In this document: positions 30,599-34,529 of the stretch, piece by piece
Position numbering within the stretch: position 1 is the stretch's first letter
Layout of the letters: each line of letters begins with the position of its first letter
DNA from: a virus
Taxonomy: Duplodnaviria > Caudoviricetes
DNA: 63,901 nt
Direction: 5' to 3' (one strand)
IMG/VR virus record: IMGVR_UViG_3300036768_000681
Coordinates: 1 to 63,901 of that record
Program-made: the position numbers and the translations under genes
The notes under the pieces: model-generated
Told to the model about the DNA's origin: nothing
Databases searched by the model: none
The model's input: only the letters and a program-made list of their open reading frames with translations

Positions 30599-31582
30599 AT
30601 GAATATTCCAAAACAAGCGTCAAAATATCGTGATTTGATATTACGATATTACCGCAACTATCCGCATCTTTCGATGTCAAAACTTGCAGTAATGATAACA
30701 TCGGAGAATGATATTCCCATTCAGGCTGATGGTTTTAGAAAGGTTGTATCTTATGTTGTAAGGCAAGAAGTCGGCAAGCAAGCAAAAGAATTTGATTTTG
30801 ATTTTGAAGATAAAGAATTTGAATTTGATGAAATTCCGAGTAGTGCAATTAAACCTAATTTTTATGACTTGTCAGATAAATATCAAAGAATTTTAGTTAT
30901 TTCTGATATTCACATTAAATACCACGATAACGATGCTTTAAGAATTGCTTTGAAGTATGGCTATGACAATAAATGCGACACGATAATTCTAAATGGTGAT
31001 ATAATTGATTTTGCAGGAATTTCACGATTTGAAAAGTCTTTACTGGACAGGAACATTGCCTATGAGAGGAACCTTGTTATAATGTTTTTAACTAAACTTC
31101 GTGAAAAATTTCCAAAGCAAAAAATAATTTTCAAGGCTGGTAATCACGAATTAAGACTTAAGAAATTTATTGAAACTAATGCTGAACAATTGGAAGGAAT
31201 TCAAGAATTAGAAATTGAGAATTTCTTAAAGTTATATCAATTTAACATTGATTATGTTGATCCTTATTCGATTATTAAGGTTGGAAGTTTGAATATCATT
31301 CACGGACACGAAATACTTGGTAATGGAATTAATGTTGCGAGAATGCATTTATTAAGAGCTTTTGATAATGTTTTGTTCGGTCATTTCCACAGGACACAGG
31401 ATTATATCCAAAGGAATATCAAGAACAAAACCTTTGGTGGATGGTCTATAGGATGCCTTTGCGGGCTTTACCCTACTTTCTTTCCAGTCAATAACTGGAA
31501 TCACGGCTTTGCGTTTGTAATTAGAGAAGGAGACTTCTTTAAGGTTGAAAACAAAAAAATAATCAATGGGCAAGTATTATGA
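30599..31582 (+). CDS. Calcineurin-like metallophosphoesterase with N-terminal helical domain
   Basis: SDIH, GDIID, GNHE, HGHE, GHFH motifs. Confidence 0.85.
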   Translation: MNIPKQASKYRDLILRYYRNYPHLSMSKLAVMITSENDIPIQADGFRKVVSYVVRQEVGKQAKEFDFDFEDKEFEFDEIPSSAIKPNFYDLSDKYQRILVISDIHIKYHDNDALRIALKYGYDNKCDTIILNGDIIDFAGISRFEKSLLDRNIAYERNLVIMFLTKLREKFPKQKIIFKAGNHELRLKKFIETNAEQLEGIQELEIENFLKLYQFNIDYVDPYSIIKVGSLNIIHGHEILGNGINVARMHLLRAFDNVLFGHFHRTQDYIQRNIKNKTFGGWSIGCLCGLYPTFFPVNNWNHGFAFVIREGDFFKVENKKIINGQVL

Positions 31583-32808: not shown

Positions 32809-32847
32809 AATAATGTCTCCTTCCTTTTGTTTGTTATTAATTATAAA

Positions 32848-32910
32848 CCCCGATGCTAATCACATCGGGGCAAAGGCTATTAGAACCTTCCACCTCCAAA
32901 ATGCTTTGGA
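32848..32910 (-). terminator. Triple hairpin ending in terminator-like stem downstream of the TROVE operon
   Basis: TCCAAA/TTTGGA, AAGGTT/AGCCTT and CCCCGATG/CATCGGGG followed by TTTA on the minus strand. Confidence 0.5.
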
Positions 32911-32930
32911 TTAATGCAAATATAAAAAAA

Positions 32931-32998
32931 CTGGGGAATATTTGAAAGAGTTTGGCTTTCGATTGCAGATCGAAGTAACTCTTTCATTCACCACCAGC
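32931..32998 (-). ncRNA. Y-RNA-like element 3 (short)
   Basis: GCUGGUGGUGA 5' end, bulged terminal helix, UGAAAGAGU/ACUCUUUCA stem, UUCGA/UCGAA hairpin, followed by U7. Confidence 0.75.
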
Positions 32999-33009
32999 TT
33001 AAAAATTTA

Positions 33010-33134
33010 TGGAGGAAAGTTAGGAAGGGAATTAAATGCTCTACCAATTGAGCTACAGAAGATTAACTTCTGGTGGGACTCGAACCCACAACCTTTCGCT
33101 TTGCAGGCGAAGTATCCCTTCCTATCACCATCCA
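33010..33134 (-). ncRNA. YrlA-like Y RNA with circularly permuted tRNA module
   Basis: Outer stem UAGGAAGGGA/UCCCUUCCUA; anticodon arm with GCA; T arm GUGGG-UUCGAGU-CCCAC; loop-closed acceptor stem; D arm GCUC-AAUUGGUA-GAGC; adjacent to TROVE gene. Confidence 0.85.
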
Positions 33135-33152
33135 CAAACTCAAAGAACAAAA

Positions 33153-34529
33153 TTAAATTTCAACACTATTTACAAAATCTATCAACTGATTTTCTTTCTC
33201 AATCCACTTCATAAAGTCAAAAATCTTTTCACTCCATCCAGCAATATGAAATGTGCGTGGATGGGAAATATCTTTTGTGCCATAACCTTCAATATCTATG
33301 CAGTAGACATAAACATCTGGATTTTTCTTCAAGTATTCAAGATAATATGGTTGAACTCCACCTCTCTCAATCCAGCTCTCCATATCTGACAAGATAATAA
33401 TTCTGTTGTATAATACTTTTGAATTAATTGCATAATCAAAGATAAGTGATGCCTGAGTGCCACCGCCTACTTCATTTTGTATTCTATTCGCAAGTGTCAA
33501 TACTGGTTCAATCCGTAAATATTTAAATTCCTTAATAACATCGCTATACAATATAACATCTGCATTATTACTTTTAATTAAAGCTCCTGCGAATATTGAT
33601 GCTATTTCAATTGGTTTACCCATCATTGAACCAGAAGTATCAATTGCTATTAAAGTCTTGCCTTCAAAATGAGGCACATTCTCAACGGCATAATCCAGAG
33701 CTTTCGCAATCGCTTCAAGCATATCTTGATTTCTAACTTCCTTATACGCCGTATAGAACCTAAAAGGAAGTTGCTTAGACTTTAACACTCGCTCTTTGTT
33801 TGCAATTATTTCACAAGCTTTTTTCTTTGTCTCTTCATCTGTTTGTTGGTCTATGTTGCGTAAATTCCTAAGTAAAGCCATATAACCTATTTTTTCTTCT
33901 AATACCAAATCCCTCCAAGCTTTTGCTTTATCTTCACCACTTGATAACCTTGCTTCCCAAGTCTCAGTATTTTTTAAATTTCCACTCATCAAATCACGCC
34001 AAACTTCCGCTTGCTCTTCATCTACAGGTTTAGGATGTGTTAAATTAAATAAATCAACAAGCTTGACTTTGTGATTTTCTAATCTATATTTTGCAAGTTG
34101 ATAAGCATCGAATTTTGTCAATGCTTCGGCAATTCCTTTTTTTACTTGAGCAGGCAAAGGTTTACCAAGATAAGCAACTATTTCAGTCAAATCGTCTGGT
34201 CTTTCTGCTATTCTAACAATTGCTTTGCTTACTAAACTATCACCCCTGTGATTTTTTGAAAGTTCTGAAATTAATAAATGAGTAATGCTTCTTAAATGAA
34301 ATTCTTTTCTTGCCAAAACAGCAAGTTTTGCAACAAATTCAGGTTTGACTTTTTTAATAAGTTCTTTAATTCTTTGTATTCTTTTATCGCCACTTTCATA
34401 GTATTTGTCTTCAAGGAAGGTTGTTAACACTGATACTATTAACTCCATTTCTGGAGAGTGTCGATAAGCTTTACCACCAGCTAAGTTAGTGGCGATTGTT
34501 GTTTCTTTTGTTTCATTAAATCGTGCCAT
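33153..34529 (-). CDS. TROVE-domain (Ro60/Rsr-family) RNA-binding protein with vWA domain
   Basis: TN.AGG.AY, YQLAKY, HPKP, TWE, GYMALLRNLRN, SKQLPFRF; MIDAS DTSGS...GGT...SD. Confidence 0.92.
   Translation of the reverse strand: MARFNETKETTIATNLAGGKAYRHSPEMELIVSVLTTFLEDKYYESGDKRIQRIKELIKKVKPEFVAKLAVLARKEFHLRSITHLLISELSKNHRGDSLVSKAIVRIAERPDDLTEIVAYLGKPLPAQVKKGIAEALTKFDAYQLAKYRLENHKVKLVDLFNLTHPKPVDEEQAEVWRDLMSGNLKNTETWEARLSSGEDKAKAWRDLVLEEKIGYMALLRNLRNIDQQTDEETKKKACEIIANKERVLKSKQLPFRFYTAYKEVRNQDMLEAIAKALDYAVENVPHFEGKTLIAIDTSGSMMGKPIEIASIFAGALIKSNNADVILYSDVIKEFKYLRIEPVLTLANRIQNEVGGGTQASLIFDYAINSKVLYNRIIILSDMESWIERGGVQPYYLEYLKKNPDVYVYCIDIEGYGTKDISHPRTFHIAGWSEKIFDFMKWIEKENQLIDFVNSVEI

Follow-up and report, generated by a model that had tools for sequence, protein, structure and literature searches.

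A Y RNA of a phage Ro60 locus and the case for an anticodon arm within its permuted tRNA-like module

We analyzed the virus record IMGVR_UViG_3300036768_000681 of IMG/VR, a 63.9-kb record with an estimated completeness of 91% ("the window" below means this whole stretch of 63,901 nucleotides [nt]), and in it a Ro60 gene followed on the same strand by two Y RNA genes. The subject of this work is the first of these, a YrlA-type Y RNA with a hairpin resembling a tRNA anticodon arm. The Ro60 open reading frame (ORF) of 458 amino acids (aa) matches the Pfam family TROVE (PF05731) at 1e-24 and phrog_850, "RNA-binding protein," at 9.5e-48, and its stop codon is separated from the first Y RNA by 14 nt, within the approximately 4 kb from a Ro60/TROVE gene that is characteristic of YrlA. 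A preliminary description of the sequence had interpreted the RNA as a Y RNA containing a complete but circularly permuted tRNA, the anticodon arm included. All elements it listed (outer stem, hairpin, AGGUU, T arm, closed acceptor, UA, D arm, and A) are present on the minus strand, and the assignment to a Ro60 locus agrees with both an Rfam YrlA match and the adjoining TROVE gene. The features are the following, with numbers such as C29 referring to tRNA positions and "fold" to the predicted secondary structure.

33153–34529, minus strand: Ro60 gene (TROVE domain and vWA-like C terminus), 458 aa; ORF list, Pfam, and PHROGs.
33006–33139, minus strand: YrlA-type Y RNA, the whole molecule to the extent predicted by the fold; Rfam RF02553 and fold.
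33115–33139, minus strand: outer (Ro60-binding) stem, 5′ strand, pairing with 33030–33006; fold.
33110–33114, minus strand: UACUU junction holding the conserved YUAY; UACUU precedes C29 in 43 of the 70 listed arms introduced below.
33097–33109, minus strand: local anticodon-like arm, consisting of C29 G30 C31, the loop CUGCAAA (32–38), and G39 C40 G41.
33095–33096, minus strand: A42 and A43, the 3′ end of the arm stem, with U28 and U27 as their partners by homology.
33090–33094, minus strand: variable region AGGUU (44–48), with U48 able to form the Levitt pair with A15.
33073–33089, minus strand: T arm GUGGG / UUCGAGU / CCCAC; Rfam alignment and fold.
33056–33072, minus strand: acceptor-like stem of 6 base pairs (bp), closed by a 5-nt loop; fold.
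33038–33055, minus strand: U8 and A9 (UA, 33055–33054), then the D arm GCUC / AAUUGGUA / GAGC (33053–33038).
33035–33037, minus strand: A26 (33037) and U27-U28 (33036–33035), the latter being the D-side half of the split stem by family covariation.
33006–33034, minus strand: linker UAAU, followed by the outer stem's 3′ strand (33030–33006); fold.
32924–32998, minus strand: second Y RNA, YrlB-like; fold of −25.1 kcal/mol, z-score −4.79.
32847–32871, minus strand: terminator-like hairpin closing the Ro60 and Y RNA unit.

Against the Rfam YrlA model (RF02553), positions 33006–33131 scored 52.2 bits (E 4.5e-11). This is below the gathering cut-off of 69 bits, which is an operational threshold and not a biological feature, and at gathering thresholds Rfam gave no match anywhere in the window. 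The alignment to the YrlA model, proposed as a check in the preliminary description, places the hairpin as a 15-nt insertion, and we attribute the shortfall of the score (52.2 vs. 69) to that insertion. All five helices appear in the minimum free energy fold of 33005–33140 (−52 kcal/mol; z-score −5.05), and none of 200 dinucleotide shuffles folded equally well. The order of T arm, closed acceptor-like stem, and D arm is that of YrlA in both the Rfam alignment and the fold, and AUAC at 33115–33112 was counted as the YUAY motif of the family. The 5′ strand of the outer stem contains GGUGAUAG (33129–33122), which only approximates, in a comparison by eye, GNCGAAN0-1G, the published Ro60 motif located in the stem of the paired 5′ and 3′ ends (Chen 2014, PMC4201824).

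The hairpin itself reads UUCGC / CUGCAAA / GCGAA at 33111–33095 and is preceded by UAC at 33114–33112. It has the properties of a canonical anticodon arm, namely a 5-bp stem and a 7-nt loop with U33 and a purine at 37, followed by a short variable loop and a T arm, the 5-bp stem being made up of two separate strand segments. The linear order of a tRNA, with free 5′ and CCA ends, is absent, as the molecule is permuted, its acceptor is closed, and no CCA is encoded. The partners of the tRNA tertiary contacts can be read in the RNA: U8 with A14, A15 with U48, G18-G19 with U55-C56, A9 with U12-A23, and G46 with C13-G22. The label "Cys" applies to the anticodon triplet only: A15:U48 and C13-G22 are found in the sequence, and the acceptor has no free end.

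The hairpin was then sought among relatives of the locus. Six viral contigs encode Ro60 proteins 39–59% identical to that of the window, and in them the Y RNA genes, of which each locus has one to three, sit upstream of Ro60. In all of these Y RNAs, with or without a tRNA-like body, R-U-A-C-U-U-C follows the outer stem's 5′ strand. Rfam YrlA matches, below threshold but with E of 0.01 or better, were found at two of the six loci, and ARAGORN made no tRNA call at any of these six nearest Ro60 loci. At one of them, L006, the arm consists of a clean 5-bp stem and a 7-nt loop followed by AGGUC.

A motif-selected scan of viral contigs (TACTTC, a gap, GGTYG, and a T arm) gave at least 118 stretches. 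Pooled with the window, these made 113 distinct listed matches, of which 7 were dropped for a D-arm-like motif upstream (L042 probably wrongly) and 106 were kept. Both of our collection scans yielded samples, and the counts given here and below (113, 106, 128, 70, and so on) describe these, not the whole collection. The segment was 17 nt long in 51 of the 106 listed matches, 16 nt in 22, 18 nt in 7, and of other lengths in 26; the 16-nt class represents the same arm with a one-base shift. Within the 17-nt class, all five positions were paired in 40 of the 51 listed segments and four in 6 more, while within-sequence shuffles gave on average 0.9 and at most 5 fully paired segments. The hairpin cells of this class were 92.4% paired, with a covariation score of 0.498 compared with 0.174 in shuffled data, and none of 500 shuffles reached 0.498. 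The arm is thus above chance at the level of the family. The loops of the 51 listed segments have a pyrimidine at 32 in 46, U33 in 49, a purine at 37 in all 51, and A38 in 49, and contain 21 different middle triplets. In six of the 51 listed arm-bearing Y RNAs (L027, L057, L064, L087, L090, and L125), the 62 nt following the T arm hold no TAGCTCA motif of a D arm; some of these may be Y RNAs with an arm and a T arm only, and L064 seems to have a variant D arm.

A second definition of the units ignores the sequence upstream of the T arm and asks for four elements: the T arm, a closed acceptor hairpin with 5 bp or more, UA, and the D arm. It yielded 134 listed permuted T–acceptor–D units from phage and bacterial contigs, or 128 after 6 were dropped as suspected tandem tRNAs. 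The full arm, defined as a local 3-bp stem with a 7-nt loop, was found in 70 of these 128. By source, it was present in 52 of 80 listed units from the motif-selected scan, in 9 of 35 from a scan selecting on the T and D motifs only, and in 9 of 13 from other loci, including Verrucomicrobia contigs and a plasmid of Rhizobium etli. The arm is therefore widespread in phage Y RNAs and found in some bacterial ones, and the idea that it is peculiar to the locus studied here has to be given up. Acceptor stems of 7 or 8 bp were the commonest (81 of 128 listed units). A second YrlA subfamily (L178, L213, L217, L230, L234, L144, and others) has CAGCAA instead of UACUU in the 5′ strand; its loops are anticodon-like (CUUGUAA, CUGUUAA, UUUGGGA), with only two or three local base pairs in addition to the D-side pairs.

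The sequence rules of the loop resemble those of tRNA. Among the 70 listed arms, U33 is present in 66, a purine at 37 in 69, A38 in 66, and a pyrimidine at 32 in 59; the claim that homologs would keep a 7-nt loop of the form Y-U-NNN-R-A, and with it the form of an anticodon arm, is borne out by these numbers. Positions 45–48 are GGUC or GGUU in 68 of the 70, and in the window, too, the hairpin is followed by a variable region of 5 nt (NGGUY) and the T arm, as in a class-I tRNA and as originally described. Positions 34 and 35 are variable, giving 25 triplets in the 70 listed arms with GUU, UGU, and GCU the commonest. Positions 36 and 37 are coupled, being UA in 44, GG in 20, and other combinations in 6, and A36-A37-A38 of the window is unique among the 70. 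Eight of nine GG sequences had a UA sequence as their nearest neighbor outside the loop, which hints at repeated switches at 36/37, although the resolution is poor. In tRNAs, position 37 is modified according to its context, with t6A on U36-A37, TrmD acting on G36-G37, and MiaA on A36-A37-A38. The 36–37 pairs of the Y RNAs appear to echo these rules, and by its sequence the window would be of the MiaA type.

The placement of the arm within a tRNA body depends on the two pairs that close its stem. We studied these in an alignment of 45 listed sequences that includes the bases after the D arm. In this alignment, the pair 43:27 is G–C in 39 sequences, C–G in 2, U–A in 2, A–U in 1, and other in 1, and the pair 42:28 is A–U in 28, G–C in 11, C–G in 4, and U–A in 2. 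The helix 27–28:42–43 is 98.9% paired, with double changes at both pairs; in a separate count, 89 of 90 cells were paired, all of them Watson–Crick, while shuffles gave a mean of 63.4 and a maximum of 72. Both 27:43 and 28:42 hold in 113 of the 128 listed units. Within the local stem of the 45 sequences, the pair 30:40 is G–C in 34, C–G in 7, and U–A in 2, and the pair 31:39 is A–U in 21, C–G in 17, and U–A in 7. The D and T helices were 100% paired across the 45 relatives, and RNAalifold recovered a covarying 7-bp acceptor-like helix in the relatives.

The alternative pairing of 43–42, with the two Us of the UACUU junction, gives 39 U·G pairs, leaves 5–6 sequences unpaired, and shows no double changes. 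As positions 42 and 43 change to bases unable to pair with U while complementarity to the D side is kept, we assign the pairing to the D side. In the window, the Us after the D arm are assigned as 27–28 because of homology, and Rfam's alignment likewise pairs A42-A43 with the Us after the D arm. Since 27–28 come from the side of the D arm, the Ro60 stem enters between 28 and 29. This revises the graft point of the preliminary description, which had placed it between 26 and 27; the UU of the conserved UACUU junction has only wobble-type compatibility. The bases facing each other at 26 and 44 are G/A in 28, A/U in 18, and G/U in 8 of the 70 listed arms, and these are the usual combinations at 26–44 of tRNAs. 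The tRNA numbering fits exactly, with 26 opposite 44, 27–28 on the D side, 29–31 on the returning strand, then the loop 32–38, the strand 39–43, and the variable region 44–48.

We consider it probable that the molecule belongs to the YrlA class of Y RNAs, as part of a phage Ro60 operon, and that its tRNA-like module amounts to an entire class-I tRNA body in circularly permuted form, including the anticodon arm. By sequence and comparison, the chain runs through the T arm, the acceptor stem closed by a loop, and the D arm, after which 26 faces 44, 27–28 pair with 43–42, and the chain exits to the Ro60-binding stem along its 3′ strand. It returns along the 5′ strand, which re-enters via the conserved UACUU and supplies 29–31, the loop with Y32, U33, R37, and A38, and the strand 39–43. 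The product is a 5-bp anticodon stem broken at 28/29, with the Ro60 stem attached at the break. As the strand 39–43 is unbroken, the local hairpin should stack on the 27–28:42–43 pairs and the D stem, and the Ro60 stem would hang on single-stranded linkers.

Several observations weigh against this model. The search pattern fixed the junction UU in the main set, and covariation supporting the alternative UU pairing would thus be invisible there; in the window, A43-A42 could pair just as well with the junction UU as with U27-U28. RNAalifold, applied to the 45 aligned sequences, returned helices for the T, acceptor, and D parts and missed the arm in both of its versions. With the pieces joined in tRNA order, ARAGORN called 113 of the 128 units, compared with 101 of 128 for controls in which the arm had been swapped for upstream sequence. 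Among the closest relatives, L002, whose Ro60 is the most similar (59% identity), keeps the 17-nt length and the 27–28 pairs but has lost the local stem, and in L005 the arm is reduced to 3 bp. Nor is the arm universal: it was found in 9 of 35 listed units in the scan without upstream selection, and it is lacking from R. etli YrlA-1 and from the Rfam consensus. Position 36 is U or G in 66 of the 70 listed arms and almost never C or A, so that the triplet is less free than in a set of tRNAs. Lastly, a similar hairpin is found on the second Y RNA, which has no tRNA body, and the hairpin could therefore act alone.

The strongest alternative, in our judgment a minority explanation but one to be taken seriously, is that the outer Ro60 stem replaces the anticodon stem and that the hairpin is a class-II-like long variable arm serving as a structural spacer. 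The hairpin is drawn in this way by Chen 2014 (PMC4201824), and in the Salmonella crystal structure the outer stem continues the pairs formed after the D arm, with a kink at the conserved UA (Wang 2018, 10.1101/312249). The 58 of 128 listed units without a full arm indicate that it is dispensable in many YrlAs, and the failure of RNAalifold to predict it points the same way. What speaks for an anticodon arm instead is that all of 44–48, including the Gs of the G45/G46 type and Y48, follow the hairpin and that the loop has 7 nt. Class-II variable arms sit after 44–45 and have loops of 3–5 nt. Moreover, a spacer need not keep a 7-nt loop, U33 in 66 and a purine at 37 in 69 of the 70 listed arms, or the coupling of 36 and 37, and the continuity of the strand 39–43 with the pairs to 27–28 favors stacking of the hairpin.

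It is improbable, though with some support from the second Y RNA, that the hairpin is a U-turn loop of the YUNR type made for RNA–RNA kissing (with the second Y RNA, with itself, or with the anticodon of a tRNA) and that its likeness to an anticodon arm is convergent or inherited. The second Y RNA consists of an outer stem, the motif GGUGAAUG, which is like GGUGAUUG (approximately, by eye), UAC, a hairpin, and a U run. Its hairpin, UUCGA / UCUGCAA / UCGAA at 32974–32958, has 5 bp and a 7-nt loop and is among the TACTTC hairpins with all five positions paired, and no T or D arm is present. A hairpin of this kind thus exists without a tRNA body. TACTTC, too, is present in Y RNAs without a T arm, and for Y RNAs lacking a T arm the enrichment of a hairpin in the fixed 5/7/5 register is only modest (9 of 218 near T-arm motifs vs. 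15 of 1,116 elsewhere). The self-complementary UGCA occurs in the loops of both Y RNAs of the window (33105–33102 and 32967–32964, minus strand) and, by eye, in Y RNA loops of L002, L003, and L006; a loop–loop contact between Y RNAs through UGCA is conceivable, and a phage Ro60–Y RNA particle has been seen as a dimer (PMC12135203). Most arms are, however, without UGCA, the commonest triplets among those listed being GUU, UGU, and GCU, and kissing leaves both the coupling of 36 and 37 and A38 unexplained; a covarying partner was not found, although no search aimed at one was made.

Still less probable is a permuted or split tRNA gene, in which cutting of the acceptor loop by RNase P or Z and addition of CCA would produce a two-piece chargeable tRNA reading UGC/UGU. 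All parts of a tRNA are present, acceptors of 7–8 bp are the commonest among the listed units, RNase P cuts the YrlA of Mycobacterium smegmatis, to which CCA is added (Chen 2014, PMC4201824), and processing was raised as a possibility by Wang 2018 (10.1101/312249). The window, on the other hand, has an acceptor of 6 bp and encodes neither a discriminator nor CCA. The identity elements of tRNA-Cys are U73 and G15:G48. These are absent from the RNA of the window, and the restriction of position 36 to U or G among the listed arms is unlike a set used for decoding. Searches of the window for RtcB, an Rnl2-type ligase, and a CCA-adding enzyme gave no match; the T4 Rnl1 family gave none either, but the control of that search likewise matched no genome. 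An ordinary tRNA-Cys gene at 33065–33139 can be set aside with near certainty: ARAGORN calls tRNA-Cys(gca) there, its sole tRNA call in the window, and the Rfam tRNA model matches the hairpin, variable loop, and T arm with 26 bits, but this is below the cut-off of 29, covers only model positions 4–67 with a 20-nt filler skipping the D-arm positions, and overlooks a real D arm downstream of the T arm in a stretch that matches YrlA end to end.

What a permuted tRNA body with an anticodon arm might do can be only tentatively suggested, and this applies to the engagement of anticodon-reading enzymes put forward in the preliminary description. One possibility, which we hold with less confidence than the structure, is that the RNA is not chargeable and tethers Ro60, probably together with a host exonuclease such as PNPase, to proteins that read whole tRNAs, with the loop acting as bait or competitor for the modifiers of position 37 and for anticodon nucleases. 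The tethering of Ro60 to an effector by Y RNAs would follow by analogy with the literature: YrlA is modified by TruB and DusA (Chen 2014, PMC4201824), a phage Ro60 has been found to associate with its Y RNA and with host PNPase in one complex (PMC12135203), and YrlA has been proposed as a competitive inhibitor of an anticodon nuclease (Hughes 2020, PMC7790460). Counting against such a role, the Salmonella YrlA, which has no arm, was not cut by the RecA-dependent nuclease (PMC7790460). A more speculative and rather doubtful extension is that the stem-loop named "V" in YrlA RNAs would be the anticodon arm in a complete permuted tRNA interrupted at 28/29 by the Ro60 stem, in which phages vary 34–35 and keep the 36/37 rules, and that Ro60 particles might display these loops during infection as decoys or traps for host anticodon nucleases or loop modifiers. 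The loop displayed by the phage of the window would then, with the same reservation, be the A36-A37-A38 "Cys-like" type.

Where the effector recruited by YrlA is concerned, the literature has pointed to the tRNA elbow and describes YrlA as having no anticodon loop. Should a true anticodon arm with tRNA-like loop rules be present in a large proportion of phage YrlAs and in some bacterial ones, readers of the anticodon loop, among them position-37 modification enzymes and the anticodon nucleases of host defense, would join the candidate partners. The model of a dimeric-tRNA origin cited by Wang 2018 (10.1101/312249) would also be affected, as the anticodon arm of the first tRNA would still be visible.

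The arm has consequences for annotation as well. At the gathering cut-off, Rfam YrlA matched none of 20 arm-bearing relative loci tested, and in 4 of the 20 (L025, L029, L030, and L045), as in the window, the stretch of the YrlA was taken for a tRNA by ARAGORN. In GenBank, a "tRNA-Thr" of Xanthomonas phage 10KY502B (L251 2331–2398; loop UGU) and a "tRNA-Gln" of Caulobacter phage CcrColossus (L252 1673–1740; loop CUG) each overlap an arm-bearing Y RNA next to Ro60, and judged by their sequences these look like miscalled Y RNAs. With arm-bearing YrlAs falling below the Rfam cut-off and some deposited as tRNA genes, inventories of phage tRNAs would hold false entries. Two further Rfam tRNA matches near YrlAs, L019 8303–8379 (48 bits) and L078 612–685 (55.7 bits), lack the acceptor ends (model positions 5–66 and 4–67) and could be Y RNAs rather than tRNAs.

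Around the locus, the same-strand genes upstream of Ro60 have the appearance of a replication module. A metallophosphoesterase gene at 30599–31582 (plus strand; phrog_221 at 9.2e-43) lies on the opposite strand approximately 1.4 kb from the Y RNAs, and four to five small neighboring ORFs had no PHROGs or Pfam match.

The object itself is known, and what is new is its interpretation as an anticodon arm. YrlA RNAs are found beside Ro60 in more than 250 bacteria and phages, and the hairpin was already seen by Chen 2014, who named it the "V" (variable) arm, called it less conserved, and described the conserved YUAY as beginning the region (PMC4201824). The preliminary description was to count as refuted if existing YrlA alignments already included the arm. 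This is partly the case: the published "V" arm has the position of the hairpin, whereas the Rfam consensus is without the arm. Statements of the anticodon-arm form, the split stem, or the tRNA-like loop rules were not found in the literature searched; the supplements of Chen 2014 lie outside it, and an earlier statement is possible. The solved module of Salmonella is without the hairpin, and its YrlA is said to lack "the anticodon loop," the outer stem being the equivalent of the anticodon stem (Wang 2018, 10.1101/312249).

The YrlA of S. Typhimurium (RF02553, 6CU1) resembles the RNA of the window in its same-strand Ro60, the long end stem, the order of T arm, closed acceptor, and D arm, and YUAY; its nucleotides after the D arm also pair with those before the variable loop, and the tertiary partners are kept. 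It differs in that both it and the Rfam consensus are without the hairpin, whereas the RNA of the window has 13 extra nt, which form 3 bp and a 7-nt loop and bring the anticodon stem to its full 5 bp. Plasmid pA of R. etli CIAT 652 carries two tandem YrlAs downstream of a Ro60 gene (L250 3891–4150). The one without the hairpin (YrlA-1) scores 92.2 bits with the Rfam model and the one with it 63.5 bits. The latter, YrlA-2 (L250 3891–4024), has the hairpin in the same place: its stem has 3 bp, its loop reads UCGUUAA, and CC pairs with GG after the D arm; it is by this hairpin at the same position that we regard the object as known. Compared with the "V" YrlAs of Chen 2014, the phage set shows the tRNA-like conservation of the loop and the geometry of the split stem.

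Yrn1 of Deinococcus radiodurans is likewise a Y RNA; it contains a T arm and what was termed a "potential anticodon arm," whose stem has 5 bp (Chen 2014, PMC4201824). The loop of this arm has 6 nt, a full D arm is missing, and the arm is situated between the T and D elements; its independent evolution has been argued (Chen 2014, PMC4201824). Permuted tRNA genes of red algae and an archaeon similarly have an acceptor stem that starts as a closed loop, and their ends are located in or near the anticodon stem (10.1101/312249). They pass through a circular intermediate to a working tRNA, of which the RNA of the window gives no sign (no search for a bulge-helix-bulge motif was made), and the ends of the latter extend into the Ro60-binding stem. 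The tRNA-like structure of turnip yellow mosaic virus and tmRNA–SmpB, finally, are L-shaped mimics with an equivalent of the anticodon domain (10.1101/312249); both have a free CCA and are charged, whereas the RNA of the window has a closed acceptor and is tied to Ro60.

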